DNA of 64,000 nt from Gammaproteobacteria bacterium. Its GTDB lineage: Bacteria > Pseudomonadota > Gammaproteobacteria > Burkholderiales > Gallionellaceae. The notes beneath the pieces were generated by a model, which worked only from the letters and a program-made list of their open reading frames with translations, was not told the origin of the DNA and searched no databases. The stretch's first letter is position 1; each line of letters opens with the position of its first letter. The translations under genes and the position numbers were made by a program. This document shows positions 11,172 through 27,932 of the stretch, piece by piece. The stretch covers positions 8,064 to 72,063 of the forward strand of contig JAHJNJ010000017.1 in assembly GCA_018820925.1 (NCBI GenBank), written 5' to 3'.

Positions 11172-11903
11172 TTAGGGCATCCTCGGCCGTGCCGTCCCAC
11201 TCTGCCGCACCGAATTACGTAGCGCACGCAGCACGTTTTCGATGGTGCGTATCTGCATCTTGCGTACCGGCGAAGGCGGGCTTTTCTCATCCGGGATTTC
11301 GGTGCCATAGCCCGGCTTGTCGATGACCACGCTGCCGAATTCATTGGAAACCACGATGGAAGTCTGCTTGCCCGCTTCTTCCGGTTCCAGCAACACGATT
11401 TTGGCGGAAGCATCCACCGTCTTCCCGTCTATTTCCTGGCGGTCGGTCACTTCGCCTTCGACCTGGGTGCCGCGAATGCCGATCGTGGCCACCCTCGCCC
11501 GCACCGTCATTTCGCGTCCCTTGGTATGCGCGATCAGGCCGGACACGAAACGGAAAACACCCTTGATGATCCTGGAATGAAAGGCATCCTCTTCCGCACC
11601 TTTGGTGTATTTGAATTTATCAATCACAAACTCGGTATTCGGCCCCAGGGCGAAACGCGACTCATCGGTGAACTGGATGTGAACACTGGTGTTCTTGTCA
11701 GTCGAGATATGTTCCCCGGAATACACGGCATCGCCCACACTGAGCTTGCGCGAAGTACCGTCGGGCTGCCGGGCTTCGGCAACATCCCCGGTCATCTTCG
11801 ACACTTCCCCCGCAGAAGGCGGGCCCGCCATGGCCGAAGCCATCACCGGCGATAAAAGCACGCCCAAAAAAATCAAACCTGTCATCCAATTTTGATATTT
11901 CAT
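11172..11903 (-). CDS. FecR-domain exported protein
   Basis: Signal peptide; RKLSVGDAVYSGE, F.D.S...LGPNT, ATIGIRGT typical of FecR domains. Confidence 0.8.
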   Translation of the reverse strand: MKYQNWMTGLIFLGVLLSPVMASAMAGPPSAGEVSKMTGDVAEARQPDGTSRKLSVGDAVYSGEHISTDKNTSVHIQFTDESRFALGPNTEFVIDKFKYTKGAEEDAFHSRIIKGVFRFVSGLIAHTKGREMTVRARVATIGIRGTQVEGEVTDRQEIDGKTVDASAKIVLLEPEEAGKQTSIVVSNEFGSVVIDKPGYGTEIPDEKSPPSPVRKMQIRTIENVLRALRNSVRQSGTARPRMP

Positions 11904-11977
11904 TTTCTATCTCCTTTGGTGCTGATTGATGCGACGCATGAGGGCTATGTGATGAAACCAGTGCTGTTGCAGCCTAA

Positions 11978-12187
11978 AGCCCCTCACCCTAACCCCCTCC
12001 CGCCTGCGGGAGAGGGAATTGATATGTTTAATCTCTTCGGGAAAAATTCCCCGCTGCTTGCAGCGCCAGATTTTGTAGGATGGGTTGAGCGCAGCGATAC
12101 CCATCAAATTCCGGGTGGCCAACAAATGATGGGTATCGCTGCGCTCAACCCATCCTACACAAGCAATACCACGCAGCTTGCTGCGGG
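11978..12187. repeat. Nested repeat mosaic: CCCTC-type hairpin, two CGC(T/A)GCTTGC(A/T)GCG hairpins, perfect 31-bp inverted GTAGGATGGG REP doublet
   Basis: ccctcaccctaacccctcccgcctgcgggagaggg near 11980; GTAGGATGGGTTGAGCGCAGCGATACCCATC 12075-12105 and its exact inverse 12128-12158. Confidence 0.75.
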
Positions 12188-12210
12188 GTACTTTATTACT
12201 CAGTGCCCCC

Positions 12211-15200
12211 TCACTTCTTAATATCCACCGCCAAACGCGCCGTCCCCAGGCTGCTGCTGGGCAACAATGTACTACCTTTGGCGGGAAGGTAGCGCGCCCC
12301 GACCAATTGTTTCTCAACCTTGAGGCTCTCCACTTTCCACCTGGCCTGGCCTCTCGAATCCAGCTTGACCGGTCGTCCGACCCGTTTGCCGTTAAGCGTG
12401 AACTGCACGGTTCCCGTCGGGACAACTTTTCTGGCGACGTCCATCCGGGTGATCGCGGCGTGTCGCACCACTGTCGCGGTAAACGTGACCGTCTTCTTGT
12501 CCCTGGAAATACCCCTGTCGTCGCGCAATACGATTGCGGTCAACCCGGTGCGTACCTTCTGGGTGAGCGCATGGCCCTTGGCAAGGTTGGCATTCCCCAT
12601 GACTCTTACGTCGAACACACAGTCTGCCTTCTCGTTCTTGCCCGCGACACCGCGACAGGCAAGCTGCGCAGCCTTGAGCCCGAGCGGCTTGGCAACCGGC
12701 CCGCTACCCGTGGCATACGGCCCGTTCTCCGTCGGCCATGCCTTGTTGGTAAAGCTCACTGTCGAAGTACCCTCGGCATAATCGAACAGGCTGGTCTCCT
12801 TGTTCACGCGCCAGGAATCGGCAAACTTCACATACAGCTCGACATAGCGGTCATGCGGTGCGGCGGGCATCATTCCCAGCGCCGAACCATTCGCCAGCCT
12901 GGGCAGCCAGCTTCCCTTGCCGCGCGCCCCCATGATGCCTTCGTAGGCAGATGTGTGGAACACATTGATATGCAGCCACCACGCGCCGTAGAAAGGCCAC
13001 GAACTGGTGTTGACCATCAGCGTGGTCTGATCCGGGAAGTCGATCTGAATGCCGCTGGCCTGCGCCATCACCCGGCCGCCATCGCCAAGATCGATGCCGT
13101 CAACAGGCAATGTGGTCGGCACGCCGTCCACGCGCAATACGAACGTACCGCCCGCCGCATTGGGACTGGTATCCGGCTGATAGGTCACGCGATGCTTGCC
13201 TACTCGTGCCGCGACCGCAGTATTGACACTCGCCCCGCTGGTCAGACCGGTATAGGCATCGGGGAGCGGCGGCGCGGTGGGAACTGCGGCCATGCGCAGT
13301 TGAATCTCCATACCCTTGGCACCGCGCAAGGCCACGAACTCGCCCGCGCCCTGGAAGTCGTAGTGCAGACCGTCAACGGTGGTGATGTGCGGGTCACCCA
13401 CGGCAGTTGCATCAGTGGCGCTGCAAACGCTTTCCGGGGTGCCGCCACCATCCGTGTAGGACACGCACACGCTCATGAATTGGCCGATATCGGCTGCAGC
13501 CAGGACATAAGTGTCACTGTTCCCGCCCACCGGTGCGCCAGTGGCCTGCCACTCATAGCTGAAAGCACCCAAACCATCCGCATCAAAAATCGGGTTGGGT
13601 AAAGTGGCCGTAAGCGTATTGGCCGTGAGCGTCTGGCCCACCGTCCTTGTGCCGCTGATGAACGGCAGCCCGGTCGGTGCATCGTTCATCGGCGCCACAT
13701 TCACCGTCACCGTCGCCACGTTCGAAGTCAGGCCCCCATCTGTCGCCTGGTAGGTGAAATTCGCCGTACCGTTAAAGTTCGTGTTCGGCGTAAAGGTCAC
13801 CGTACCACCGCCGTTCAGCACTACCGTGCCGCCCACGCCATTTGTCACGCTGGCAACCGAGAGCGTCGTGCCCGCATCCACATCCGTATCGTTACCCAGC
13901 AATTGTGCCGCCGTATAAGTCACCGGCATGTCCTCGGTTGCAGCAAGCGTGTCGTTATTCGCCACTGGCGCATGCGGCACCGCCGCCGACACATTCACCG
14001 TCACCGTCGCCACGTTCGACGGCAAGCTGCCGTCCGTTGCCGTGTAAGTGAAGTTCGCCGTGCCGCTAAAACCGGCTGTCGGCGTAAAAGTCACCGTGCC
14101 ATCACCGTTCAGCACCACTGTTCCGTTGGCACCGCTTGTCACGCTGGAGATCGTAAGCGTCGTGCCCGCATCCACATCCGTATCGTTACCCAGCAATTGC
14201 GCCGCCGTGTAGGTCGCCGGCGTATCCTGAGCCGCCGCAAGCGTATCGTTATTCGCCACCGGCGCTTCGTTCACGTTCGTGATCGCCAGCGAGAAAGCCT
14301 GGGAGGCATCCGGTGTCGCCCCGACACTCACATCATCGACGCTGACCGTGACGCTATAGCTGTTCTTGACCTCGTAATTGGCACTGCCGGAGAAATACAA
14401 CTCGTTGCCGGCAATATTGAATGACCCCGCATCCGCCCCCGACAAGGCCAGCAGGTTTGTCCCCAGTCCGTCATCGGTGACCACAATATCCGCCACCTTG
14501 ATATTGCCGCCGTTTTCGGGTGTAGCGGGAACCGTGTTCGACAGCACCAGCGCTGTCGGCGGATCGTTCACGTTGATCACGTTCACCGTCAAAGGCTGAT
14601 CAAATGCCGCCCCAAAAAAATCCGTCACACGGACAGTCACGGCATAGCTCGGTTTCGTTAGATAGTTCAAAACACCGGCATTGATACGCAGTGTATTGGT
14701 TGCGGAATTGATACTGAAAACTGCCGAGTCGGCCCCACCATTGATGCTGAAAGTATACTTGTCGCACGTATCGGTATCGATTGCACTCAACGTGCCAACG
14801 TCATAACCGCCGCTCGTATTGATATGCTCGTTGAGGCTGCTGCTGGAAAGAGTGACGCCTGTCGGCACTTGATTGCGTTGCATCATTGCGCGATAGATGT
14901 CGAGACGCGGCGCGCTACTTCCATCAGGGAATGGCACCGTAACATTTGCGCTGGTGCGCAAGGTGGATTCGATTTGGTCGAGTGGGACGCCGCAGGAATT
15001 CAGGATTGCAGCTGCACCAGCGATCATGGGCGAAGCTAACGAAGTACCGCTTGGACTGCTATAGCCTCCACCCACAGCAGTCGTGCGAATAACTGATCCT
15101 GGGGCAACCATATCTACCCAAGCTCCATAATTGCTGTCGCTACAACGTTGATCCAGCGCAACCGAGCCACAAGCTGGATCAACCACTGATGCACTATTTG

Positions 15201-16923
15201 CAACGGTAATAAACAACGCCTTGTTTGTCAGGGCAGCATGCTCAGGCCGTACAGAGTCGTTGCATCGCGCAGGGTAATAGAAACTATTTACGTTATTGTT
15301 TCCAGCACCATTTACAGCAACAGCAATAGGTACACCTGCATTAAGCACTGCAGAATTAACTGCAGAACAAAGAGGAGTGACATCTACCAGCCCCCCCCAA
15401 GGCCCCCCGATAAAGCTGGCATTTATGACAGAGGCAAGCCCATAAGCTGCAGAATCGGTAAAACCTTGCGTCATTTCTGCAAAAGTAATCACGGCATCTG
15501 CACTCACCTGTATGGATTTGATCTTACTCCCGTACGAAACTCCAGCCACCCCCAAAGCATTGTCTGTCTTTGCCGCAACGACTCCAGCGACCTGAGTGCC
15601 GTGCCCAACAATGTCGGTATTGGCTGAACCACAGTCGTTATCTACCAACTGACAGTTGCCTACAATACCGAAATCAGGATGAGTGCGGTCCAGTCCTGTA
15701 TCCAACACAGTCATAGTCACACCAACACCCGTCGCCCCGATATCCCAAACATCCTGCGCTCTCACGCGCTGCAAACCATGCTGGCTCGCATATTCAGTGT
15801 CGGAGGGCGTGAACACATAAGCACCAATCGCGTTAACCGATACGGACTTCACCTCGGATCGCTTATTCAATTCATCAATCAATGACAACAATCGAGAAGA
15901 GTTCGCAGGTTCGGGAAGCCGCAATTGATACAAGTTCAAAGGCAGAATGCTGCCGACAACTTTTGCATTGATATCTGCCGCCAACATTAGTATCGATTTC
16001 GAATTGACCCCAGGTGCCACCGTGATTAGCAGTTCATCCGCAACCGCTTTAGTGCCACCCGATAAAACCACAGGCTTGGATATATTCGAAGCTGCCGCGC
16101 GCACCGGAAATGCACTTACACATAACTTGAGTGGCGAGGAAACCACTTCGGTGCGTCCTTTATGAATTACCGCCTCATAACTCAAACACGAATCCGGTTT
16201 CAACAGGCCCGTATCGACGACAACATTCACACCATAGATCCCATCCTTGGCAATCAAGTCGCCCTCTTTGCCGAGGTCGTTCATAGCAATCAATTTACGG
16301 CCAGCGCCACTACGCAGATAGACTTCATTTGACGTACCAAACTTCCCTGCAGTCCTGACGCTGAACCGGACTTTAGCTTTGCCGCTATCCGCTTTCAACG
16401 CATAGGGTTCTGCTCGCGGCTCCAGCGGAGCCAGCTCAACACCTGCACTCACATGGGAAGCGGATGCAAAAGGCGATCTCACCGTATTAACCCGAATCGC
16501 TTTTGTGGTAACCGTTTGTCTGACTTTTTCAACTGCATAATCCACCCGAACCGCCTTGGTCATGCCGCCAGCTACCAACCTCTCTTTAGGTAATGCAAAT
16601 TCAAAGTAAGGCTGCCCATCCTTACCTATCCCTTGTGCATTCAGGACGCGCACAGTCTTGAGTGCATCCTGATCAATCGACAGTCGCAAAGGAGAAAGAA
16701 GCGCAGCTCCAGAGCGGTTCCTAACGCGCACCAGGGTGGAATAGATACCTTTTTTTGCATCAAACTGAACCTTGGAAAAGGTGACCGTCACGCGGTGATC
16801 GACACTGACAACAACAGGCGTCTCAGCGGCCATCACCTGGAACGAGAACAAAGATAGAACAAGCACCCCCAACAGTCGGTGGAATCGCTGCATTATGTTG
16901 GTTGTTGTTAAACATGCATTCAT
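12211..16923 (-). CDS. Large secreted S8 subtilase with cadherin/Ig repeats, VWD-like domain and C-terminal Ig-like domain
   Basis: GGAGG RBS before ATG 16923; triad VLDTG / GHGTQVAG / GTSLASPMIAGAAA; APVANNDTL repeats; GDPHITTVDGLHYDFQGAGEF; no C-terminal TM. Confidence 0.85.
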   Translation of the reverse strand: MNACLTTTNIMQRFHRLLGVLVLSLFSFQVMAAETPVVVSVDHRVTVTFSKVQFDAKKGIYSTLVRVRNRSGAALLSPLRLSIDQDALKTVRVLNAQGIGKDGQPYFEFALPKERLVAGGMTKAVRVDYAVEKVRQTVTTKAIRVNTVRSPFASASHVSAGVELAPLEPRAEPYALKADSGKAKVRFSVRTAGKFGTSNEVYLRSGAGRKLIAMNDLGKEGDLIAKDGIYGVNVVVDTGLLKPDSCLSYEAVIHKGRTEVVSSPLKLCVSAFPVRAAASNISKPVVLSGGTKAVADELLITVAPGVNSKSILMLAADINAKVVGSILPLNLYQLRLPEPANSSRLLSLIDELNKRSEVKSVSVNAIGAYVFTPSDTEYASQHGLQRVRAQDVWDIGATGVGVTMTVLDTGLDRTHPDFGIVGNCQLVDNDCGSANTDIVGHGTQVAGVVAAKTDNALGVAGVSYGSKIKSIQVSADAVITFAEMTQGFTDSAAYGLASVINASFIGGPWGGLVDVTPLCSAVNSAVLNAGVPIAVAVNGAGNNNVNSFYYPARCNDSVRPEHAALTNKALFITVANSASVVDPACGSVALDQRCSDSNYGAWVDMVAPGSVIRTTAVGGGYSSPSGTSLASPMIAGAAAILNSCGVPLDQIESTLRTSANVTVPFPDGSSAPRLDIYRAMMQRNQVPTGVTLSSSSLNEHINTSGGYDVGTLSAIDTDTCDKYTFSINGGADSAVFSINSATNTLRINAGVLNYLTKPSYAVTVRVTDFFGAAFDQPLTVNVINVNDPPTALVLSNTVPATPENGGNIKVADIVVTDDGLGTNLLALSGADAGSFNIAGNELYFSGSANYEVKNSYSVTVSVDDVSVGATPDASQAFSLAITNVNEAPVANNDTLAAAQDTPATYTAAQLLGNDTDVDAGTTLTISSVTSGANGTVVLNGDGTVTFTPTAGFSGTANFTYTATDGSLPSNVATVTVNVSAAVPHAPVANNDTLAATEDMPVTYTAAQLLGNDTDVDAGTTLSVASVTNGVGGTVVLNGGGTVTFTPNTNFNGTANFTYQATDGGLTSNVATVTVNVAPMNDAPTGLPFISGTRTVGQTLTANTLTATLPNPIFDADGLGAFSYEWQATGAPVGGNSDTYVLAAADIGQFMSVCVSYTDGGGTPESVCSATDATAVGDPHITTVDGLHYDFQGAGEFVALRGAKGMEIQLRMAAVPTAPPLPDAYTGLTSGASVNTAVAARVGKHRVTYQPDTSPNAAGGTFVLRVDGVPTTLPVDGIDLGDGGRVMAQASGIQIDFPDQTTLMVNTSSWPFYGAWWLHINVFHTSAYEGIMGARGKGSWLPRLANGSALGMMPAAPHDRYVELYVKFADSWRVNKETSLFDYAEGTSTVSFTNKAWPTENGPYATGSGPVAKPLGLKAAQLACRGVAGKNEKADCVFDVRVMGNANLAKGHALTQKVRTGLTAIVLRDDRGISRDKKTVTFTATVVRHAAITRMDVARKVVPTGTVQFTLNGKRVGRPVKLDSRGQARWKVESLKVEKQLVGARYLPAKGSTLLPSSSLGTARLAVDIKK
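13697..14284 (-). repeat. Two tandem 294-bp intragenic repeats (98-aa cadherin-like/Ig units)
   Basis: acattcaccgtcaccgtcgccacgttcga at 13697 and 13991; long shared stretches such as gtgcccgcatccacatccgtatcgttacccagcaattg. Confidence 0.85.
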
Positions 16924-16975
16924 CACTGCCTCCAGGATTGAAAAGTGCTGCTTATTGATGAGAACCTCTCGCATT

Positions 16976-17043
16976 GTCATGCCGAACTTGATCCGGCATC
17001 CAGTTGTTTTATTCAACCAGATTCCAGCCTCCGCCGGAATGAC
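16976..17043. repeat. GTCAT-type REP-like inverted pair
   Basis: GTCATGCCGAACTTGATCCGGCATCCAG at 16976-17003 facing the inverse of GTCATTCCGGCGGAGGCTGGAATCTGG at 17017-17043. Confidence 0.65.
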
Positions 17044-17059
17044 AAAATTTGTTTTTTCC

Positions 17060-17875
17060 CTAATCCGCCGCCAATCCCCCAAGTATTTCCCCCCAAACAT
17101 CTTGCCAACAGCAACTGTGATCCTGCTTCGGGAATACCTTGAACGTTGCCCCTTGCTGCCGCACAAGCGCATCACGCACCAGCATCGGCGGCACGTTGTC
17201 ATCCAGTGCACCAGCAAAATGCATCTGCCTGATACGCGGTAGCAATGGCGGACGGGTTGCGGGGTTAAGCGAACCTGTCAGCGGCTGTTGCTTGTGCAAT
17301 GCTGCCCAGCGCTCCGTATCCAGGTTAGCGGCAATAGTGATGACTGTTTGGGTTTTCGGCTGCCGTGCTGCAATCAGCATTGCCAGTGCGCCGCCTCCGC
17401 TATAACCCAAGATATCCAGTGCCTGATAATCCACCGACAACCGATCCAGCGCTGCGGACATGCTGGCCACGACGGCCTCCGAATAACGACGATTCGTCCA
17501 CATGTCGGGCGTGCAGCCCTTTGCAGTATTCAGTCCGTGATAACAGGGCCGCCCCAGATAGAGGCTGGGCGATGGATCGAGCAGCATGAGTTCCAGCATC
17601 AGTGGCGTACGCGGTGTAGGATCAGCGGCCGCTACCCGCCTATGCACCCAGGGTGTGCCGTCGCCTTCCAGATAAACATGCAATGCCGAATGCGGCGTTG
17701 CGCTGCCATTCTTGATATACGCGACATGGCTGAAACCATCTCCCCTCACCACTACTCTCCGGTAACCCAGAGCAGCCGCTCGATCATCAATGCGCTGGGA
17801 TGGATTGGCGCAACCTGATATTTGTGCAGCAACGAGCAGCAACAATAGCAGCCTCATTGCACATGCTGTTTTCAT
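17060..17875 (-). CDS. Alpha/beta hydrolase lipoprotein
   Basis: Lipobox ISGC; HVYLEGDG oxyanion region; GYSGGG nucleophile elbow; putative Asp (GALDDNV) and His (QDHSCC). Confidence 0.8.
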   Translation of the reverse strand: MKTACAMRLLLLLLVAAQISGCANPSQRIDDRAAALGYRRVVVRGDGFSHVAYIKNGSATPHSALHVYLEGDGTPWVHRRVAAADPTPRTPLMLELMLLDPSPSLYLGRPCYHGLNTAKGCTPDMWTNRRYSEAVVASMSAALDRLSVDYQALDILGYSGGGALAMLIAARQPKTQTVITIAANLDTERWAALHKQQPLTGSLNPATRPPLLPRIRQMHFAGALDDNVPPMLVRDALVRQQGATFKVFPKQDHSCCWQDVWGEILGGLAAD

Positions 17876-18081
17876 CGATATCACTGCGAATAAAGTAAGG
17901 ATTGAATAATCGACGCATGATTCGACGTGTTTCCGTTCGCCCTGATAGCCACCAACTTGTAACCAACGACTTGGGTGGCCTTGTATACCAGCTTAGTCGT
18001 GCGGCTAGTAGTTCCGCCAGTACCGCGCACGATACGGTGGATCAAAGGGGTGAATGTGAAACACTACTCGGCTCGTATTGT

Positions 18082-19293
18082 TCAGAACTCCATCAACGCG
18101 CCGAGGCTGACCGCCCAGCTACTTAACAGTTTGTCCTGTGCGCGTCTATCATAATCAAGGAACAGTTGGGTGCCGCCATTGAGCGCTGCTGATACTCCCA
18201 AACCCAGATCTAAATAGTTACGGTCTGGAGCATCCGTTGTCACAGTGAAACCATAGCCGGGAGTGCCAACCAATTCATTGGTGATCTGCTTAGAATTATT
18301 TTGAAACTCATGCACTGTGGCCAAACGTGCTGTTGGATTCAAGGTACCCCAGTCGTAACCATAAGAGGTACTCAATCGCGCCCCAAGACTTGTTGTCATT
18401 GAGATTGTGCTTCGATCGAAGTAGTGCATCTCGAGAGACGTCGTACCGCTCTCGCGGTACCCATCAATAAACGTCTTAATGTAATCCAGATTAATAAAGG
18501 GAGACAGATTTAAACGACCTACATCTTTTTGGTAACTGGTTGAGATGCCAGCCATGACCTGATGTCCGTTAGTTGTACCGCTGGTCGTGCCGGATATAAG
18601 GCCAAACTCAACATGACGATTGCTATCGAAGTTAAGTTTCCCATAACCCAAGTAACCATCGACTGAGACGCTCTCCGATGGCAACCAAGTGCTATACATT
18701 GTTAATGCATTACTGCTAGTTTTGATAAAACCGGCACTGTTGAGAAAAGTAGCATTATCTTTTGTATAACCGAGGGTCGCACCGAATACAAAACTATTCG
18801 AATATCTGTAATCCAGTCCTGCAACCAACCCTATTAATTTAGATTGATAGCCATTCTCGAGGTCGGTCTCGTTGCGGTTGCTATTGCCGAACTGAGGTGT
18901 CAGCAAAAAACCCCACGAACTTCCATCGGCACTGGCACCCTTTTCAGTTTCTTCTTTCTGTTCATCCCGAAGCTCACGAATCCCTTTGTTTTTTCTAGAA
19001 GCACTCCCGCTGGCTGCATTGACACTAAGGTTAGTAGAAACTGTCACGGCAGCCGTTCCAGAAATCGGTTGACCTGCAAATGCATCCAAACAGTTCTGAC
19101 CAGTTAATGTCCATCCAGGAGGGACGGGATAAGCGGTGCAAATATTGACTAGGTATTGCTTGAACTGAGTATCTGCAGAATTTGCCATAACTTGGTTCGG
19201 AAATAGCCAAAACCCCAATGACAAAACAATAACACCAGATTTACTGGCAAACGCGCAACGACCCACTTTGGACTTGATTACTCCCATATTCAT
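18082..19293 (-). CDS. Autotransporter-type outer-membrane beta-barrel with very short passenger
   Basis: Signal peptide, about 85-aa segment with two Cys, then amphipathic strands (GLVAGLDYRY, SLGARLS, LDLGLGVSA), terminal Phe. Confidence 0.8.
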   Translation of the reverse strand: MNMGVIKSKVGRCAFASKSGVIVLSLGFWLFPNQVMANSADTQFKQYLVNICTAYPVPPGWTLTGQNCLDAFAGQPISGTAAVTVSTNLSVNAASGSASRKNKGIRELRDEQKEETEKGASADGSSWGFLLTPQFGNSNRNETDLENGYQSKLIGLVAGLDYRYSNSFVFGATLGYTKDNATFLNSAGFIKTSSNALTMYSTWLPSESVSVDGYLGYGKLNFDSNRHVEFGLISGTTSGTTNGHQVMAGISTSYQKDVGRLNLSPFINLDYIKTFIDGYRESGTTSLEMHYFDRSTISMTTSLGARLSTSYGYDWGTLNPTARLATVHEFQNNSKQITNELVGTPGYGFTVTTDAPDRNYLDLGLGVSAALNGGTQLFLDYDRRAQDKLLSSWAVSLGALMEF

Positions 19294-19383
19294 ATCTCCC
19301 CCCGGATTAATTGCCTATGAACTAAATGCCACCTCGAAAAAAAACCTGCAATCCATAGCGACTTTGAATTGAATCTCCCCCTA

Positions 19384-19413
19384 AGTCAATATGACTATAT
19401 ACCTGACAGGTAT
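19384..19413. promoter_or_regulatory. Two adjacent palindromes in divergent promoter region
   Basis: AGTCA-ATA-TGACT (19384-19396) and ATACCTG-A-CAGGTAT (19399-19413). Confidence 0.4.
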
Positions 19414-19631
19414 TATCTGGATTCGCCACATCACCTGCTTATGGTTTTCGGTCAGTGATATAGCTGTCATGCATAGATCACGATTCGCTCCATATATGTC
19501 CCCAAAGCCGTACCTCATATCGCTCCCGGGAAACTAAAGACCGGAATATATAGGCCATCAAAACCCTTTCCCTGCCATAGCTTTTCAAACTACTATCGCG
19601 GTCGACTTTTCACAGTAACGGGAAAACCAGC

Positions 19632-22600
19632 ATGAACCGAAAAAACCTGAGTATCGTCGCTTCTGTGTTCTCGATGTTCGTTCTGACGCTGTGGCTCACG
19701 CAAGATCATGACGAAGCTGCGCAGACCGCGTCTTCATCCAGCGAGGCAAAGCTGGTAGCGACCAATGCAAAGCCCTCCGCGAATCCATCGGCGACATCTG
19801 GCAAGTCCGGAAACGGTACTTCCTCCACCCGGCAGCATGATCGATATGCAACACAAGGCGCGCTGACCGCTCAAGCAACGTCCGTCGCAACACCTCCTGC
19901 CCGCAACGGCGCAAATAACGATCCATCCAGCTACAATTCATCTCCGCTTCAATCTTCCCTTCAGGCGAAAGCCAGGGTCGAACCAACACCGCTTGAACCA
20001 CGCGCCGATCCATATGCATTGAAGGCCAACAGCGGCAGCGTCAATGTCCGGTTCAGCGTCAGGCTGATCGGGGATGCCGATGCATCGACCAGGGTCTATC
20101 TGCGCCAGGACGGGGCGAATGGCGTCATCGCATTGAACGACCGGGGCGCGGATGGCGATATCGTCGCCGGAGACAATATCCACGGCGGCAACATCGTGCT
20201 GGACACTTCACGTCTGCAACCGGATACCTGCCTGAGTTACATCGCAGCGCTCAGGGATGGCGAGAGCGAAACCGTTTCGTCGCCGCTGAGCTTGTGCATC
20301 AGCAACCTGCCGGTGCGTACTGCGGCATCGAACACCGACAACCCTGTTGTGTTCGCCGACGGCTCCAAAGCCGTTGCGGATGAAATACTCGTCACTGCTC
20401 TACCCGGCACCAAGATTGCCGCGATACAGGCCCTCGCCGCCAGCATCAACGCCACCATCGTCGGCAGTATCCCGCCGCTGAATCTGTATCAACTCAAACT
20501 CGCCGCACCTGCCAGCGAAGCACAGTTGGTTGCGTTGGTTGCGCAATTGAATACGCAGCCTGAGGTGAAGGCGACATCAGTTAATGCGGTTGGCAGTTAT
20601 GCATCCACACCCAACGACACGGAATATGGGAACCAGCATGGTTTGCAACGAGTGCGCGCACAGGACGTGTGGGATAACGGGGCGACGGGAAATGGGGTGA
20701 TCGTCACCGTGCTTGATTCAGGATTAGATCGCTCGCATCCTGATTTTGGAGTGCCCGGCAACTGCCAGTTGGCAACAGACGCAACACCGGGCGTGGCAAA
20801 TACAGATTGTGGTGGTACGAACAATGATTCTTTAGGCCACGGAACGCAAGTCGCTGGTGTGATTGCCGCGAAGACCAACAATGCATTGGGTGTGGCTGGG
20901 GTAGCGCACGGCAGCAGGATACATTCGATTCAAGTAAGCGCTACTGCTCCTTCTCTTGTGGAAATGATGCAAGGCTTTACTGATGCGGCAGCCTATGGAG
21001 TCGCTTCGGTAATCAATGCCAGTTTCGCTGTTTTGGTATCGCCATCCACAAACGTATCTGGTCTATGTAACAGGATAAATACAGCGGTATTGAATGGAAC
21101 GAATGCTGTTGCGGTGGTGGTCAATGCGGCCGGGAATAGCAGCACCAACGACTACTACTATCCAGGTCGCTGCAACGTCAATGATCTAGCGAACCATATA
21201 GGTCAACATGAGATGCTTACCCGCAAAGATTTATTCATCACTGTAGCGAATAGCGCATCTGTGGCCGATGCGGCATGCGGTTCCGTTGGGATTGATCAGC
21301 GATGCAGCACGAGTAATTATGGCGCCTGGGTGGATATTGCAGCACCGGGTACACAAATACGAACGACCGCAATAGGTGCGCCTCAACCACCGGCTGGAAA
21401 TTACGCCAGTCCGTCAGGTACTTCATTCTCTGCACCAATGGTCTCCGGGGCTGCTGCGATATTGAAGCAGTGCGGCGTGCCTTTGGATCAAATTGAATCG
21501 AAACTCATGACAGGTACCATCCCGTCTATCCCTATAGTGTCTGTTCCGTTCCCTGATGGTAGCAGCGCACCGCGACTGGATATCTATCGTGTCTTGGCGC
21601 ATCTTAACCGTGCCCCCACTTCAGTTAATCTCACCAACAACAGTCTCAATGATGGTACCGACACCACGACTGGCGTGGAGGTTGGTACCCTGACGTCTGC
21701 CGATCTCGACACTTGCGACAAGCATAGCTACACAATCAATGGGGGTGCCGATGCCGCCAAGTTCAGCATTGGTGGTGCCGCATCCGACAGGCTGATACTG
21801 ACTGACGGGGTGCTGAACTATACAAACCAGTCCAGCTATACAGTCATCGTTCACGTGACAGACTTTTTCGGCGCAACACATGATCAAGCGCTGACGGTGA
21901 ACGTAGCCGCCGTGAACCACGCCCCAACCATTTCCAGCCAGACTTTCCGCACCAACGAGGACACTGCCAACAGCACGACTGTTGGAACGGTACTCGCAAG
22001 CGACCCGGACAGCGGCAACGTGCTCACTTACAGCATCACTGCGGGCAACACGAGCAGTGCCTTCAGCATCAACGCCAACACGGGGGTGCTCAGCGTCAGC
22101 AACAGCACGGCACTGGTTTACGCGACCAACCCGACTTTCAGCCTGACCGTGACAGTGACCGATGGCGGCGGGTTGAGCGCTAACGCCACGGTGACGGTGA
22201 ATGTCAACAAGGCTCCGACCCTCTCGAATCAGACTTTCAGCGTCAACGAGAGCGGTGCCAGCGGCACCGTTGTTGGAACGGTGCAGGCCAGCGATGCGGG
22301 CGATACGTTGAGCTACAGCATCACGGCAAGCAGCCCCAGCACTGCCTTCAGCATCAATTCATCCACGGGGGTGGTTAGCGTCAGCAACAGTGCGGCTTTG
22401 GTTTATGCGACCAACCCGACTTTCAGCCTGACCGTGCAGGTCACGGACACGGGCGGATTGACCGCGTCAGCCACGGTGACGGTGAATGTGAACCCGCCGG
22501 GTACGCCGACAAATAACGCACCGGTTATCGCCAATCAAACCTTTGTCGTTGCCGATAGTGCTGCCAACGACACGGCGGTCGGGTCGGTAGTCGCCAGCGA

Positions 22601-23018
22601 CCCGGATGCGGGCGATAGCCTGAGCTTCAGCATCACGGCAGGCAATACGGACAGCGCCTTCGCCATCAACCCGGCCACAGGGGTACTCAGCGTGAGCAAC
22701 AGCGCGGCGGTAAGTTATACGACCAATCCGACGTTCGGTTTGACCGTTCGCGTGACCGATGGCGGCGGTTTGACTGCGGCGGCGACTGTGACGGTGAATG
22801 TGAATGCGCCGACTTCTCCCCCACCCGCGTCTGGTGGTGGCAGCCCAAGTGGCGGTGGCGGCGGGTGTTCGGTGATGCCTGTTGGGGCTGATCCTGATTT
22901 GTCCCTGATCCTGGCGGTGCTGGGTTTGCTGGCTTATGGGTTGCGACGGCAAGGAACTATTGCTTATAAATCCATACTCGCGGTCGCAATTTCAAAAGTA
23001 ACGGGGAAACCAGTATGA
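19632..23018 (+). CDS. S8 subtilase with cadherin repeats and GlyGly/JDVT-type C-terminal sorting signal (paralog 2)
   Basis: VLDSG / GHGTQVAG / GTSFSAPMVSGAAA; cadherin repeats; GGGGCSVMPVGADPDLSLILAVLGLLAYGLRR. Confidence 0.87.
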   Translation: MNRKNLSIVASVFSMFVLTLWLTQDHDEAAQTASSSSEAKLVATNAKPSANPSATSGKSGNGTSSTRQHDRYATQGALTAQATSVATPPARNGANNDPSSYNSSPLQSSLQAKARVEPTPLEPRADPYALKANSGSVNVRFSVRLIGDADASTRVYLRQDGANGVIALNDRGADGDIVAGDNIHGGNIVLDTSRLQPDTCLSYIAALRDGESETVSSPLSLCISNLPVRTAASNTDNPVVFADGSKAVADEILVTALPGTKIAAIQALAASINATIVGSIPPLNLYQLKLAAPASEAQLVALVAQLNTQPEVKATSVNAVGSYASTPNDTEYGNQHGLQRVRAQDVWDNGATGNGVIVTVLDSGLDRSHPDFGVPGNCQLATDATPGVANTDCGGTNNDSLGHGTQVAGVIAAKTNNALGVAGVAHGSRIHSIQVSATAPSLVEMMQGFTDAAAYGVASVINASFAVLVSPSTNVSGLCNRINTAVLNGTNAVAVVVNAAGNSSTNDYYYPGRCNVNDLANHIGQHEMLTRKDLFITVANSASVADAACGSVGIDQRCSTSNYGAWVDIAAPGTQIRTTAIGAPQPPAGNYASPSGTSFSAPMVSGAAAILKQCGVPLDQIESKLMTGTIPSIPIVSVPFPDGSSAPRLDIYRVLAHLNRAPTSVNLTNNSLNDGTDTTTGVEVGTLTSADLDTCDKHSYTINGGADAAKFSIGGAASDRLILTDGVLNYTNQSSYTVIVHVTDFFGATHDQALTVNVAAVNHAPTISSQTFRTNEDTANSTTVGTVLASDPDSGNVLTYSITAGNTSSAFSINANTGVLSVSNSTALVYATNPTFSLTVTVTDGGGLSANATVTVNVNKAPTLSNQTFSVNESGASGTVVGTVQASDAGDTLSYSITASSPSTAFSINSSTGVVSVSNSAALVYATNPTFSLTVQVTDTGGLTASATVTVNVNPPGTPTNNAPVIANQTFVVADSAANDTAVGSVVASDPDAGDSLSFSITAGNTDSAFAINPATGVLSVSNSAAVSYTTNPTFGLTVRVTDGGGLTAAATVTVNVNAPTSPPPASGGGSPSGGGGGCSVMPVGADPDLSLILAVLGLLAYGLRRQGTIAYKSILAVAISKVTGKPV

Positions 23019-26000
23019 GCCATAAAAACCTGAGCATTGTCGCTTCTGCATTCTTGCTGTTCTTTATGATGCTGTGGCTCACGCAAGATCATGATGAAAG
23101 TGCACAGACAGCGACTTCACCCAACGGAATGAAGCCGCTTGCGAGCAATGCAAAACCCTCTGCCATGTTTTCAGCAACATCTGACAAGTCCCGAAACGGA
23201 TCCCCCGGCACCCCTCAGCATGATCAATACGCAACTCAAAGCGCGCAGTCCGGTGAAGCCACCTCCGCCGCAACAACTCCTGCCCGCAACAGCACAAACA
23301 ACAATCCATCCAGAGACAACTCATCCCCGCTTAACTCTGCCATTCAGGCGAAAGCCAGGGTCGAACCAACACCGCTTGAACCGCGCGCCGATCCATATGC
23401 ATTGAAGGCCAACAGCGGCAGCGTCAATGTCCGGTTCAGCGTCAGGCTGATCGGGAATGCCGATGCATCGACCAGGGTCTATTTGCGCCAGAGCGGTACG
23501 GATGATGTTGTCGCCATGAACGATCAGGGCATGAACGGCGATCTTGTTGCAGGAGATAACATCCATGGTACGAACATCGTGCTGGATACGTCCAGGCTGG
23601 CACCGGATACTTGCCTGAACTACACCGCCATGTTGAAAGAAGGCGAGCACGAAGCGCTTTCGTCACCGCTGCGCTTGTGTGTAAGCAGCTTGCAAGTACG
23701 GGTGACGGCATCGGATACCACTAACCCCGTTATCTTCGCCGATGGCACAAAAGCCGTTGCCGACGAGATACTGGTCACCGCTCAGCACGGTACAAAAATC
23801 GCCGCGATGCAGGCCCTCGCCGCCAGCATCAACGCCACCATCGTCGGCAGCATCCCGCCGTTGGACTTGTATCAACTCAAACTCCCCACCCCCGCCACCG
23901 AAGCGCAACTGACCTCGCTTGTTGCGCAATTGAATGCTCACCCTGAGGTGAAAGGAGCTTCGGTCAATGCGATAGGGGAAGCCGCCGCCGCGCCAAACGA
24001 TCCTGAATATGTAAACCAACATGGTCTGCAACTTGTCCGTGCGCAGGATGTGTGGGATGCAGGTGCTACAGGCAGTGGAATTATCGTCACCGTGCTGGAT
24101 ACGGGTATTGACCGCACACATCCTGATTTTGGAACAGTGGGAAATTGCCAACTAGCAGAGAATGACTGCGGCTCTGCGAATACCGATGCTGCGATAGGCA
24201 CAACCCTTGCTGGGCACGGCACGCAAGTCGCGGGTGTTATTGCAGCAAAGACCAACAATGCCTTGGGTGTGGCAGGTGTCGCGCCTGGCAGCAAGATTCA
24301 TTCGATTAAGCTCGCAGACTACACTGCAGCAGGAATGGTGCAAGGTTTCACCGATGCAGCCACCTACGTTAGTGCTTCTCTAATCAATGCCAGTTTCTAC
24401 GGTGAGTGGGACCCATCAAGTTGGGTATATGCATCAAGCCTAACGGCTTTATGCACCTCAATCAATTCTGCCGTAGTGAATGGAAATACACCTGTCGCGG
24501 TGGTCGTCAATTCAGTTGGAAATAACGGCATGAATGGCAATTTCTACCCTGCGCGATGCAACGATTCCACAAACGCCCTACATGGGCAACTAACCCGCAA
24601 AGATTTACTTATTACCGTTGCCAATAGTATTTCCTCGCTACCCGTTGACCCACTTTGCGCAAACGCCGTTGCTGTAGATCAACGCTGTGGTGGTACATCC
24701 ACAGGAATCTACTACACCAGCAATTATGGTGCGTGGGTGGATATTGTCGCGCCTGGTGCGCAGATACGTACGACCACATTAACTAATGCCGGAAGCTACA
24801 CCAGCCCTACAGGCACTTCATTCTCATCCCCCATGGTCGCAGGCGCGGCAGCCATACTGAAACAATGTGGAGTACCACTTGGCGACGACCCAGCAACGCC
24901 ATCGGTTACAGAAGGAATCGAACACGTATTGAAAGCAAGTGGTGCCAATGTAATGGTTTCATTCCCCGACGGCAGCAGCGCCCCACGCCTCGACATCTAC
25001 CGCGCCCTCGAACTAGTCAACCGCCCCCCCACAGCCCTGGCAATCTCCAACAGCAGCCTTCTCAGCAATCTCAACACCTCAGCCGGAGCCGAGGTTGGAG
25101 CGTTGAGCAAAACGGATCCCGACACGTGCGACAAGTGGACTTACAGCATTGTGGGCGGCGCAGATGCCGCATCGTTCAGCATCGGCGGCACTGCTTCCGA
25201 CAGACTGATACTGACTGCCGGCGTGTTGAATTCTGCAGTCAAGTCCAGCTATGCCGTTACTGTCCGTGTAACGGACTATTTTGGAGTGCCGTTCGATCAG
25301 CCAATGACGGTAAACGTAACTTCCGTGAACAACCCGCCCACCATTTCCAACCAGACCTTCCGCATCAACGAGAGCAGTGCCAATGGCACGGCTGTGGGAA
25401 CCGTGCTCGCCAGCGATCCGGATAGCGGCAATGTGTTGAGCTACAGCATCACTGCGGGCAATACCAGCAGTGCCTTTAGCATTAACGCCAGCACGGGCGC
25501 GCTCAGCGTCAATAACACTGCAGCATTGGCAGCCAACCCGACTTTCAGCCTGACCGTAACAGTGACCGATGGCGGCGGATTGAGCGCTAACGCTACCGTG
25601 ACGGTGAATGTCAACAAGGCTCCGTCCATTTCCAACCAGACTTTCAGCATCAACGAAGGCAGTGCCAATGGCACGTCTGTCGGGACGGTGATAGCCAGCG
25701 ATGCGGGCGATACGTTGATCTACAGCATCACTGCAAGCAGCCCAAGCAGTGCTTTCAGCATCAATTCTTCCACGGGGGTGATCAGTGTCAGCGACACTAC
25801 GGCGTTAATTTATGCAACCAACCCGACTTTCAGCCTGACCGTGCAGGTAACGGATAGCGGTAATTTGTCTGCGTCTGCCACGGTTACGGTAAATGTGAAC
25901 CCGCCGGGAACACCAGCAAACAACGCACCAAGCATTGCCAATCAGACGTTTGCCATCGACGACTGTAGCGCGAATGGCACTGTCGCAGGTTCGGTACTCG

Positions 26001-26371
26001 CCTCGGACCCGGATGCAGGCGATAGCCTGAGCTTCAGCATCACGGCGGGCAACACGGACAGCGCCTTCGCCATCAACCCGACCACGGGGGTGCTCAGCGT
26101 GAGCAACAGTGCGGCGGTGAGTTATACGACCAATCCGACTTTCAGCCTGACTGTGCAGGTGACTGATAACGGCAGCCTGAGCGCGAATGCCACCGTGACG
26201 GTGAATGTGAATGCGCCGACTTCTCCCCCACCCACTTCTGGTGGTGGCAGCCCAAGTGGCGGTGGCGGCGGGTGTTCGGTGATGCCTGTTGGGGCTGATC
26301 CTGATTTGTCCCTGATCCTGGCGGTGCTGGGTTTGCTGGCTTATGGGGTGCGGCGGCGGCGGCAAGTTTGA
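23015..26371 (+). CDS. S8 subtilase with cadherin repeats and GlyGly/JDVT-type C-terminal sorting signal (paralog 3)
   Basis: VLDTG / GHGTQVAG / GTSFSSPMVAGAAA; same architecture; ends YGVRRRRQV. Confidence 0.87.
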   Translation: MSHKNLSIVASAFLLFFMMLWLTQDHDESAQTATSPNGMKPLASNAKPSAMFSATSDKSRNGSPGTPQHDQYATQSAQSGEATSAATTPARNSTNNNPSRDNSSPLNSAIQAKARVEPTPLEPRADPYALKANSGSVNVRFSVRLIGNADASTRVYLRQSGTDDVVAMNDQGMNGDLVAGDNIHGTNIVLDTSRLAPDTCLNYTAMLKEGEHEALSSPLRLCVSSLQVRVTASDTTNPVIFADGTKAVADEILVTAQHGTKIAAMQALAASINATIVGSIPPLDLYQLKLPTPATEAQLTSLVAQLNAHPEVKGASVNAIGEAAAAPNDPEYVNQHGLQLVRAQDVWDAGATGSGIIVTVLDTGIDRTHPDFGTVGNCQLAENDCGSANTDAAIGTTLAGHGTQVAGVIAAKTNNALGVAGVAPGSKIHSIKLADYTAAGMVQGFTDAATYVSASLINASFYGEWDPSSWVYASSLTALCTSINSAVVNGNTPVAVVVNSVGNNGMNGNFYPARCNDSTNALHGQLTRKDLLITVANSISSLPVDPLCANAVAVDQRCGGTSTGIYYTSNYGAWVDIVAPGAQIRTTTLTNAGSYTSPTGTSFSSPMVAGAAAILKQCGVPLGDDPATPSVTEGIEHVLKASGANVMVSFPDGSSAPRLDIYRALELVNRPPTALAISNSSLLSNLNTSAGAEVGALSKTDPDTCDKWTYSIVGGADAASFSIGGTASDRLILTAGVLNSAVKSSYAVTVRVTDYFGVPFDQPMTVNVTSVNNPPTISNQTFRINESSANGTAVGTVLASDPDSGNVLSYSITAGNTSSAFSINASTGALSVNNTAALAANPTFSLTVTVTDGGGLSANATVTVNVNKAPSISNQTFSINEGSANGTSVGTVIASDAGDTLIYSITASSPSSAFSINSSTGVISVSDTTALIYATNPTFSLTVQVTDSGNLSASATVTVNVNPPGTPANNAPSIANQTFAIDDCSANGTVAGSVLASDPDAGDSLSFSITAGNTDSAFAINPTTGVLSVSNSAAVSYTTNPTFSLTVQVTDNGSLSANATVTVNVNAPTSPPPTSGGGSPSGGGGGCSVMPVGADPDLSLILAVLGLLAYGVRRRRQV

Positions 26372-26480: not shown

Positions 26481-26530
26481 TGTTGGCTGATTTGACAACA
26501 TGATTTAATGTTGGCATAGTGGCCAACATG
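26481..26530 (+). promoter_or_regulatory. Sigma70-like promoter with overlapping operator palindrome; probably leaderless
   Basis: TTGACA 26492-26497, 17 bp, CATAGT 26515-26520; ATGTTGGC-N6-GCCAACAT 26508-26529 covering -10 and ATG 26528. Confidence 0.7.
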
Positions 26531-26812
26531 TCAGCCCAACTTATTGCACGCTTCAAAAACATCACAACCGATGGCGCTCTTCTTGAGGTTGTTGTGTGGA
26601 AAGTGCCCGAACCTGTGCCGCCTACGGACCATGGCTATAAATATAGAGCGGTCTATGTGGTGGATGGAATTCGCGTAGTGGGATTTGATAATGAGCGCGG
26701 CAAGGGCGATCACTGCCACCTCGACGGTATTGAAGCGCCCTATGCTTTCAGGGGAGTGGAGCAGTTAATCGAAGACTTTATTGCGGCAGTTGCCGCCAGG
26801 AGAAAACCATGA
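26528..26812 (+). CDS. DUF6516 (TumE-like) putative toxin
   Basis: HGYKYRAVYVVDG.RVVGFDNERGKGDHCH motif; 94 aa; overlaps HTH gene. Confidence 0.75.
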   Translation: MSAQLIARFKNITTDGALLEVVVWKVPEPVPPTDHGYKYRAVYVVDGIRVVGFDNERGKGDHCHLDGIEAPYAFRGVEQLIEDFIAAVAARRKP

Positions 26813-27162
26813 CCGAACGTTACCTTACCATAACCATGCAGCCTGACTGGAAGGGTGCTTTACGCGCTATGGGGCAAGCAGCCAAGGCGGATACCTACCA
26901 AGGTGAAGTGCTTAATTTCGAGAGCCCCGGTCACTTCTTTGGCCAACTCTCTGAAAAGCGCTGGGAGATTGTCCGTGCCGCACAAGGTAAAGGTGAACTA
27001 TCGGTGCGTGAACTAGCTCGTGCAGTTGGGCGCGATGTTAAGCGCGTGCATGAAGACGTAGTTATTCTGGCTGAATTGGGCTTGCTGGAACGTACAGAGG
27101 GAGGTGGTGTGATGTGCCCTTATACTTCCATGCACATTGACATGTACCTAAAAGCGGCTTGA
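26809..27162 (+). CDS. HVO_A0114-family HTH protein, putative antitoxin
   Basis: LSEKRWEIV, SVRELARAVGRDVKRVHEDV..L.ELGL HTH; ATGA overlap with upstream gene. Confidence 0.75.
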   Translation: MTERYLTITMQPDWKGALRAMGQAAKADTYQGEVLNFESPGHFFGQLSEKRWEIVRAAQGKGELSVRELARAVGRDVKRVHEDVVILAELGLLERTEGGGVMCPYTSMHIDMYLKAA

Positions 27163-27300: not shown

Positions 27301-27468
27301 ATGCATAGCCATTGAGCGGTTGGGCGGCAAGCCGTATTTTGTTTAATCCAATTGATCCGGCGGTCCCTTCAAATACCCATACTAGCGTACCCAAACCCAC
27401 ACCCGCCGATGCCGCTTGCCTAACCGCCCGATTTTGACAACAATGGCAGCCAGTAACCGGAGCCCCGA

Positions 27469-27924
27469 ATGCCAAAACAAGCTGTAGCCGATTTCACCCT
27501 GCCCGCCACCGGCGGTGTCGATTTCACGCTTTACCCCATCCGCAGCAAATCGTTGGTGATTTATTTCTATCCCAAGGACAGCACGCCGGGTTGTACCACC
27601 GAGGCGCAGCAGTTCCGCGATTTGTATGCCGAATTCAAGGAAGCGGGCAGCGAGATCGTCGGTATTTCGCGCGACGGCATCAAGTCGCACGAAAACTTCA
27701 AAACGAAATTCACGCTGCCGTTTGCATTGCTTTCCGATGAGGAAGAGAAGGTATGCAACCTGTTCGGCGTGCTGAAGAAAAAGCTGATGTACGGCAAGAC
27801 AGTACACGGCATCGAGCGCAGCACCTTTGTGCTCGATAACAAGGGCATCATCCGCAAGGAATGGCGCGGCCTCAAGGCGGACGGCCACGCAGATGAAGTA
27901 CTCGATTTTGTTCAAACAATTTAA
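27469..27924 (+). CDS. bcp: Peroxiredoxin BCP
   Basis: YFYPKDSTPGCTTEA, IERSTF. Confidence 0.92.
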   Translation: MPKQAVADFTLPATGGVDFTLYPIRSKSLVIYFYPKDSTPGCTTEAQQFRDLYAEFKEAGSEIVGISRDGIKSHENFKTKFTLPFALLSDEEEKVCNLFGVLKKKLMYGKTVHGIERSTFVLDNKGIIRKEWRGLKADGHADEVLDFVQTI

Positions 27925-27932
27925 AGGACAAC

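Follow-up and report, generated by a model that had tools for sequence, protein, structure and literature searches.

A six-gene island at positions 11172-26371 of a 64,000-nucleotide stretch of a Gallionellaceae genome (assembly GCA_018820925.1, contig JAHJNJ010000017.1, positions 8,064 to 72,063; the whole stretch is called the window below) probably encodes a dedicated, lineage-specific surface-subtilase system with two anchoring routes. In the list of open reading frames (ORFs), the island comprises three S8 subtilases (S8A, S8B and S8C), an autotransporter barrel, a lipoprotein hydrolase and a FecR-domain protein. The core operon, transcribed from the minus strand in the order barrel, hydrolase, S8A and FecR-like gene, would supply a minimal barrel, an outer-membrane lipoprotein hydrolase, the protease S8A and a secreted FecR-domain protein, with the trio of barrel, hydrolase and FecR-like protein acting as a docking or maturation platform for S8A. 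An accessory arm would consist of one or two S8A paralogs that keep its N-terminal module (N-module), catalytic domain and cadherin stalk and end in a JDVT-CTERM sorting tag; in the window these are S8B and S8C, in tandem on the plus strand and divergent from the barrel. A first-pass annotation of this DNA had described such a divergent arrangement around a barrel and a lipoprotein hydrolase with FecR downstream, and the ORFs lie accordingly. The analysis establishes which domains the proteins contain, that the catalytic residues are intact, which export signals are there, how the genes are ordered, that they recur and co-vary, and that the genome encodes the sorting protease MrtJ and the secretin GspD; enzymatic activity, surface location, substrates and all protein-protein contacts are inferred. 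The same annotation had proposed a dedicated cell-surface proteolysis/adhesion system, and at the level of sequence this proposal is supported by the conserved core order, an all-or-none profile in the genus, the location of CTERM copies in the island, the export signals, and the JDVT-CTERM tag together with MrtJ.

The core operon recurs within the family. With the mid-island hydrolase as query and one genome per species, we obtained 425 matches and kept 80 loci with 10-kb flanks. Among loci long enough to be read, the order barrel, hydrolase, S8 and FecR is the same in at least 13 Gallionellaceae genomes or contigs (L025-L028, L031, L032, L034, L036, L039-L041, L170 and L172). The S8 protein of this conserved core typically combines the N-module, the S8 domain, cadherin repeats and a VWD-Ig end (a VWD-like domain followed by an immunoglobulin-like domain), and the core usually lies between PhoH and HlyIII. 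Barrel identity to the window is only 45-61% across the core loci, which indicates that the order survived long divergence rather than reflecting recently shared sequence. At a further locus (L072), hydrolase, S8 and FecR are present and the barrel would fall beyond the contig start. Within the genus, a profile of the four core genes over 25 genomes found all four in the genome of the window (G000) and in G004, G012 and G018, and none in 18 others; the partial cases are two fragmentary ones (G008 and G003) and one that lacks S8 only (G009). A complete genome of the genus that was examined, G005, does not contain the island. The first-pass annotation had held that chance accretion would be implied if these gene types never co-occurred elsewhere; as the neighbourhood check found them together, in the same order, in all of the 13 or more genomes or contigs, that objection fails.

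Genomes without the module hold other genes between CbiM and PhoH, and this site is thus a variable hotspot. The hotspot could also fit a simpler explanation, in which the proteases are freely secreted nutritional or matrix-degrading enzymes, S8A is a type II secretion substrate, and the neighbouring genes are independent and co-travel via the hotspot only. The varying content and changing toxin-antitoxin pairs of the CbiM-PhoH site are consistent with this idea, as are the presence of GspD in the genome (622 bits) and the VWD-Ig module, which also ends many unrelated secreted enzymes. However, gene order and orientation have been kept at a low level of barrel identity, the genus profile is all-or-none, and links between hydrolase and barrel and between FecR and barrel are found in other orders with rearranged gene order. 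Furthermore, Gallionellaceae are chemolithoautotrophs, for which peptide scavenging answers no obvious need. We consider free secretion quite unlikely and favor a dedicated surface system.

As judged from profiles and alignment, the proteases of this proposed system are ordinary S8 members. The Peptidase_S8 profile (Pfam PF00082; cut-off 21.8 bits) scores 85.8 bits in S8A (catalytic domain at 14995-15726 on the minus strand, residues 498-741 of the full ORF), 117.0 bits in S8B and 101.4 bits in S8C. In a three-way alignment the triad D506 (VLDTG), H539 (GHGT) and S726 (GTS) is invariant and in subtilisin order, which bears out the earlier description of three large S8 proteases with intact D/H/S triads. 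Identity over the protease region is 72% between S8B and S8C and 59% between either of them and S8A, and all three proteins carry cadherin-type repeats (Pfam, NCBIfam). The alignment also contains the motifs PLEPRA(E/D)PYALKA.SG and (M/L)ND.G..GD..A.D.I.G, in agreement with the N-terminal module that the first-pass annotation had seen in all three, and the common closing motif that it had noted, which reads FPDGSSAPRLDIYR.

The likeness to choice-of-anchor X that had been suggested for the N-module did not hold up: NF041940 matched S8A only, at 16.7 bits (E=0.0044), below its cut-off of 25, and gave no match to S8B or S8C. The N-module is instead an Ig-like piece with the (M/L)ND.G..GD..A.D.I.G motif followed by the S8 prodomain; this C-terminal half of the module is Fervidolysin_NPro-like (27.1 and 23.2 bits in Pfam, cut-off 21). 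The module appears in only about 39 protein clusters, nearly all from Gallionellaceae or Nitrosomonadales, with one partial match labelled Dongiaceae. Its proteins fall into two classes, one of about 1000-1120 amino acids with a tag and one of 1300-1850 amino acids with an Ig end, and the window holds both. S8A, the core subtilase, occupies an ORF at 12211-17217 on the minus strand; its probable start is the ATG at 16893, where a classical signal peptide begins (MQRFHRLLGVLVLSLFSFQVMA, followed by AE), giving a gene of 12211-16893 and a protein of about 1560 amino acids. The domain order in S8A is signal peptide, Ig-like domain, N-module, prodomain, S8, a cadherin/tandem-95 stalk (tandem-95 repeat, 149.7 bits; cut-off 90) and a VWD-C8-Ig end. 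Every island product carries a predicted export signal: as read from the sequence, there are signal peptides on S8A, the barrel and the FecR-like protein, a lipobox (ISGC) on the hydrolase, and N-terminal hydrophobic segments on S8B and S8C.

S8B (19632-23018, plus strand, 1128 amino acids) and S8C (23015-26371, plus strand, 1118 amino acids) are JDVT-CTERM subtilase-cadherins whose genes overlap by start and stop codon (ATGA). Their DNA is 80-94% identical in the N-module, stalk and tag, and identity drops to 52-61% in the catalytic core, which points either to diversification of the active-site region or to gene conversion that homogenised the flanks. An assembly artefact as the source of the tandem was ruled out: the unique parts of the two genes have read depths of 28.1 and 29.6, equal to single-copy flanks at 31.8 and 31.3 (contigs, run X1), and an independent groundwater run (X2) contains the two copies, each at 100% identity. 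In run X3, a bioreactor metagenome, one contig links the end of a CTERM subtilase (26372) to the region just upstream of a subtilase start (19606) via 19 other letters, which points to a relative whose tandem array is spaced differently.

The first-pass annotation had assigned the S8B and S8C C-termini to a CTERM sorting signal and that of S8A to VWD plus Ig. The former assignment is upheld by tag architecture, and the latter is below threshold in Pfam and backed by other evidence, given further below. The JDVT-CTERM definition comprises a single Cys, an Asp-Pro about nine residues later, a Leu-rich helix and an Arg cluster (Haft 2023, bioRxiv 10.1101/2023.06.07.544157). Both tags (22851-22952 in S8B and 26258-26362 in S8C) contain a single Cys, an Asp-Pro at +8/+9, a Leu-rich transmembrane helix and a C-terminal Arg cluster, in the pattern ...GGGGGC-SVMPVGA-DP-DLSLILAVLGLLAYG-(V/L)RR...; the S8C tag reads GGGGGCSVMPVGADPDLSLILAVLGLLAYGVRRRRQV. 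Against model NF033191 (cut-off 27 bits), S8C scored 28.4 bits in a six-frame genome search and 22.8 in hmmscan, and in the six-frame search S8B and S8C were the only JDVT-CTERM candidates of the genome. The S8C tag ends normally, and in S8B a 20-residue tail (TIAYKSILAVAISKVTGKPV, 22953-23018) follows the Arg cluster of the tag and runs into the S8C start codon.

The sorting protease expected for such tags is present as well. The genome has one MrtJ (NF033192), on contig C25 (11864-12289, minus strand), with the EExxxR, FxxxH and HxxxN motifs of CPBP catalytic sites and a score of 76 bits (cut-off 75). Among the relatives sampled in the genus and order, a JDVT-CTERM match accompanies MrtJ in most genomes where the latter is over cut-off; G003 is an exception. 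All eight CTERM-class subtilase copies that we examined lie in the island, divergent from the barrel: the two in the window and those of L025 (from G004), L029, L166, L168, L170 and L172. L168 has a second, disrupted CTERM subtilase copy upstream. MrtJ directly follows the CTERM subtilase in L025, L029 and L168, and in L166 a BrnT pair has been inserted ahead of it; in L170, L172 and the window the CTERM subtilase has no MrtJ behind it. On C25, MrtJ lies directly downstream of a 619-residue S8 without a CTERM tag and of a 122-residue I9-propeptide-like lipoprotein (11864-14677), and in alignment it stands visibly further apart than the island-linked MrtJ copies of relatives do among themselves. 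The usual JDVT-CTERM pattern, which is typical and not obligatory, is one client per genome that adjoins mrtJ. The window departs from it with two clients and an unlinked MrtJ, and by its sequence features the tagged pair is a new, atypical JDVT-CTERM/MrtJ instance.

A route to the surface for S8B and S8C may be carried over from the MYXO-CTERM/myxosortase model. For the MYXO-CTERM protein TraA, cleavage by myxosortase and surface anchoring were shown experimentally, while dependence on type II secretion and lipidation of the Cys are a working model (PMC11980579). By this analogy the paralogs would be exported by Sec and held in the inner membrane by the tag helix; the single Cys would be modified and MrtJ would cut behind it, and type II secretion would then carry the protein out, to be lipid-anchored on the surface. 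S8A, by comparison, would be exported as a zymogen and could be retained or processed through its VWD-Ig module, through the trio of barrel, hydrolase and FecR-like protein, or through both.

The end of S8A (12214-13422, minus strand) is a module of about 400 residues that resembles VWD, C8/RGM_C and Big_3_5 Ig domains in profile, PDB phmmer and Foldseek comparisons. It opens with GDPH (13387-13398, minus strand), and GDPH(I/L)xT(V/I)DGLxYDFQ(G/S)AGEFV is invariant in S8A and 11 orthologs. The Pfam matches fall below gathering score for VWD (PF00094; 17.0 vs 22.9 bits, with 28 residues aligned) and below cut-off for the Big_3_5 Ig domain (28.8 vs 35.5 bits). In a PDB phmmer search, the module start matched the VWD domain of FCGBP (E=1.9e-4) and likewise the start of a MUC2 VWD domain. 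An AlphaFold2 model of the VWD-Ig module made with 12 orthologs had its best Foldseek matches in MUC2 and FCGBP D assemblies (TM-score 0.25-0.39); since the model confidence (pLDDT) is only 55.9, these fold matches are no more than supportive. In an exhaustive search, 3377 representative clusters proved to contain the module, and matches below 1e-30 account for 267 of these. Its usual place is the C-terminus of secreted proteins of varied kinds, among them other S8s, DUF1326, a multicopper oxidase and DUF7948 beta-propeller proteins, and some of these homologs match RGM_C and a mucin C8 model (C8-3_MUC4). One protein of 7101 residues holds ten copies of the VWD(GDPH)-C8-Big_3_5 module. In animal VWD domains GDPH is a self-cleaving Asp-Pro site (PMC10880436, PMC8267560), and by analogy the GDPH of S8A is a candidate site of the same kind. 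Docking of the VWD domain to the barrel as an obligatory link was ruled out, as some operons have an S8 with another C-terminus.

The barrel gene (18082-19293, minus strand) encodes a minimal type Va autotransporter of 403 residues with a 12-strand Autotransporter beta-domain (Pfam PF03797, 184.3 bits; residues 135-382; 18148-18891). The first-pass annotation had called this barrel bare, which is not quite accurate: in the ortholog alignment the signal peptide is followed by a mini-passenger, conserved over some 60-90 residues and including two conserved Cys, and by a linker helix. A charged linker, RKKKGIRE..EQKE, is conserved in orthologs, and the passenger is unusually small. Because S8 domains fused to autotransporter barrels are well known, and because there are weak matches to an EprS model (38-43 bits against a cut-off of 1700), the barrel could be imagined as the detached translocator of S8A, a two-gene version of NalP, SphB1 or EprS. 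We rejected this split-autotransporter idea as very improbable, since the barrel protein is complete in itself, with its own signal peptide, mini-passenger and linker helix, and its homologs carry Calx-beta/PKD passengers of their own. S8A, moreover, ends in VWD-Ig and not in an autotransporter linker, and the barrel gene lies upstream, with the hydrolase gene between it and S8A. Secretion in trans is not known for type Va systems.

The hydrolase (ORF 17060-17884, minus strand, probable start 17875) is an alpha/beta-hydrolase with a lipobox in which ISG precedes the Cys, putative catalytic residues Ser162 (GYSGGG), Asp228 and His256, and four invariant Cys. Its AlphaFold2 model (pLDDT 89.1) is a plain alpha/beta-hydrolase, for which Foldseek returned only generic esterases, S9 acylaminoacyl peptidase and PlaF (TM-score 0.55-0.63), with no specific subfamily and no close structural relative. 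The FecR-like protein (11172-11903, minus strand, 243 residues) has a signal peptide with its predicted cleavage site between MASA and MAGPP and a FecR domain (PF04773; 34.4 bits, cut-off 24). Its residues 31-107 resemble the RTX adhesin retention module (NF033682 retention_LapA, 39.5 bits, below the cut-off of 50), with a match to PDB 5ix9 at E=0.011; a PDB sequence search with the hydrolase and the FecR-like protein gave marginal matches only. We found no cytoplasmic anti-sigma domain and no transmembrane helix in the FecR-like protein; all that precedes its FecR domain is a cleavable signal peptide. In relatives its orthologs, at 64-84% identity, close the operon.

Parts of this partnership extend beyond Gallionellaceae. 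In 42 of the 80 loci, including about 25 of the roughly 60 from other orders, the hydrolase has an autotransporter barrel no more than 10 kb away. Hydrolase relatives with 43-53% identity occur in Methylococcales, Chromatiales, Thiodiazotropha, Competibacteraceae and others, often near an autotransporter that has the same Cys-containing pre-barrel segment but a real passenger (Calx-beta, PKD). Gene order and orientation vary between these non-Gallionellaceae loci. In one Methylococcaceae locus (L064), the hydrolase is followed by an S8 with a related N-module and then by the barrel. In G030 and G387, from two other Burkholderiales families, full-length FecR-like orthologs are paired with a barrel without protease or hydrolase, and a Burkholderiaceae contig (L088) has FecR, barrel and hydrolase together. 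These FecR-barrel pairs, L088 and the hydrolase-barrel loci identify the barrel as the common partner.

In the Gammaproteobacteria (loci L043-L104), hydrolase and autotransporter (Calx-beta/PKD) are accompanied by a coiled-coil caspase-like (C14) lipoprotein with Sel1 repeats, a membrane Ser/Thr kinase, PP2C and FHA-SLT; the C14 lipoprotein is found in 36 loci and the kinase in 38. This neighbourhood looks like an undescribed envelope module. A joint reading of both lineages, which we put forward tentatively and with a low chance of being right, is that barrel, hydrolase and (in Betaproteobacteria) FecR-like protein form an unrecognised outer-membrane platform that docks, matures or regulates envelope proteases, and that the VWD(GDPH)-C8-Ig module self-cleaves at Asp-Pro. 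The clients of this platform may be S8 proteases in Gallionellaceae and in one Methylococcaceae, with C14 lipoproteins taking their place in many other Gammaproteobacteria; by analogy with mucin and FCGBP domains, self-cleavage may tether or release the carried enzyme.

Several observations weigh against the surface-subtilase system as we propose it. One genome of the genus (G009) keeps barrel, hydrolase and FecR without any S8, and in L029 barrel, hydrolase and S8A are followed by no FecR match. The VWD-Ig end is not essential to the core operon, since a different C-terminus is found on one ortholog S8 (L028) and on the S8 from Methylococcaceae (L064). The S8B tag scored below the NF033191 cut-off in both searches (25.5 bits in six-frame search and 19.8 in hmmscan), and the MrtJ of the genome lies outside the island, beside an unrelated 619-residue S8, and is barely over its own cut-off. 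The recurrence described above comes mostly from one family and one syntenic site and is therefore partly a matter of shared ancestry. In the Gammaproteobacteria, hydrolase and barrel accompany the C14 lipoprotein, kinase, PP2C and FHA-SLT rather than S8, so that the trio may have a role of its own. Finally, the runs that hold the island sequence are DNA metagenomes only, with no RNA run among them.

An alternative role for the trio is envelope sensing: the barrel, with a surface-exposed Cys-loop, the periplasmic FecR-like protein and the hydrolase might form an outer-membrane sensor or relay, and the proteases would then be its regulated output or processing enzymes rather than displayed adhesin-proteases. 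FecR is a classic trans-envelope signalling domain, the gammaproteobacterial hydrolase and barrel keep company with a Ser/Thr kinase, PP2C, FHA-SLT and a caspase-like lipoprotein, and both the protease-free FecR-barrel pairs and the S8-free trio of G009 are consistent with such a relay. The Gallionellaceae island itself, however, is without a sigma factor, an anti-sigma domain, a kinase or an inner-membrane partner, the FecR-like protein has a signal peptide only, and the tagged subtilases on their cadherin stalks look like end products. A search of the window at 4.7-30 kb found no sigma factor and no TonB-dependent receptor. We regard a sensing role as unlikely, and continue to favor a surface-subtilase system in which the trio docks or matures S8A.

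Barrel operon and CTERM subtilases are separated by an AT-rich divergent intergenic region of 338 bp (19294-19631), where the promoters of both are presumed to lie. In promoter and terminator scans the counts were not above those in shuffled sequence, and no consensus promoter stood out in this region; an Rfam scan of 10-28 kb found no RNA family. The sole notable site of the terminator scan is a terminator-like hairpin at 12052-12065 (minus strand), in the 307-bp gap between S8A and FecR. In most relatives the two genes overlap or are 0-40 bp apart. With its hairpin and wider gap, this genome may be alone in transcribing FecR separately.

GC content within the island is 0.48-0.55, compared to 0.57-0.61 around it, and is 0.477 in the 18-20 kb interval. 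The left flank contains HlyIII, YkuD, GNAT and CbiM, and the right flank a TumE/HVO_A0114 toxin-antitoxin pair, then PhoH, GST and MsrB. The TumE toxin/HVO_A0114 pair (26519-27162) directly follows the island, at a position where relatives have BrnT, HigB or Phd modules; over the window and its relatives, TumE, BrnT, HigB and Phd pairs are all found between the subtilase and AhpC-PhoH. Since relatives hold different pairs at the same spot, the junction after the island appears to collect toxin-antitoxin pairs. The longest ORF beyond it (27382-27954, minus strand, 190 residues) has no Pfam match and is probably spurious; the most likely real gene is 27469-27924 (plus strand, 151 residues), the counterpart of an AhpC/TSA gene found ahead of PhoH in relatives.

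Gallionellaceae oxidise iron at their outer surface, and this surface must keep working while minerals form on it. Little is known of the surface proteins of the family, and the island offers a recurrent, well-delimited set of very large predicted surface proteases with two anchoring solutions. With two clients that have diverged catalytic cores and alike stalks and tags, it is also a natural test case for JDVT-CTERM/MrtJ sorting, so far only predicted. The partnership of a small autotransporter with a lipoprotein hydrolase spans Beta- and Gammaproteobacteria, where it is combined with different proteases. In addition, our results draw attention to a VWD-like end module that is widespread in bacteria and has self-cleaving relatives in animals. 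These findings leave current ideas standing and add testable parts to them. Our literature search found no description of Gallionellaceae surface subtilases, of a six-family island of this kind, or of the link between hydrolase and barrel.

Among known systems, the accessory arm most resembles JDVT-CTERM/MrtJ sorting, which was described in silico only (Haft 2023, bioRxiv 10.1101/2023.06.07.544157) and is a relative of MYXO-CTERM and its myxosortase MrtX (PMC11980579). The tripartite tag is the same, and a CPBP-family MrtJ is present in the genome and adjoins its client in four relatives. The window differs in having two tandem clients rather than one per genome and an unlinked MrtJ, and the client here is a subtilase-cadherin of 1100 residues within a larger conserved island. 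Like S8B and S8C, VesB of Vibrio cholerae, a type II secreted protein of the GlyGly-CTERM/rhombosortase system, is a surface serine protease with a C-terminal tripartite signal cut by an intramembrane protease. In contrast to the island proteins, VesB is trypsin-like rather than S8, has another tag and a rhomboid rather than a CPBP sorting enzyme, and has neither a cadherin stalk nor barrel, hydrolase and FecR partners.

For the core operon, NalP of Neisseria, SphB1 of Bordetella and EprS of Pseudomonas likewise associate an S8 protease with a type Va barrel at the outer membrane, and NalP and SphB1 trim other surface proteins. In these systems protease and barrel form one polypeptide, whereas in the island they are separate, complete genes with a hydrolase gene between them. 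The S8A end shares with self-cleaving animal VWD domains (MUC2, MUC5AC, FCGBP, RGM and SUSD2) the stretch GDPHxxTxDGxxYDFQGxxE, with which a predicted beta-sandwich opens, but it is bacterial, Cys-poor, followed by a Big_3_5 Ig domain and carried on enzymes; it stays below the Pfam VWD cut-off, and its cleavage is a prediction. The N-terminal part of the FecR-like protein matches FecR and, weakly, the retention module of adhesins such as LapA and MpIBP, a module that plugs an outer-membrane channel. Unlike those proteins, it is a stand-alone secreted protein of 243 residues, neither the N-terminus of a giant adhesin nor an anti-sigma factor, and has no type I secretion system or TonB-dependent transducer nearby. 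The closest working analogues are VesB with its rhombosortase and the fused proteases NalP and SphB1. The enzymes of the island are of known kinds, but the constant company of a mini autotransporter barrel, a lipoprotein hydrolase and a FecR-like protein in which they occur appears to be undescribed.

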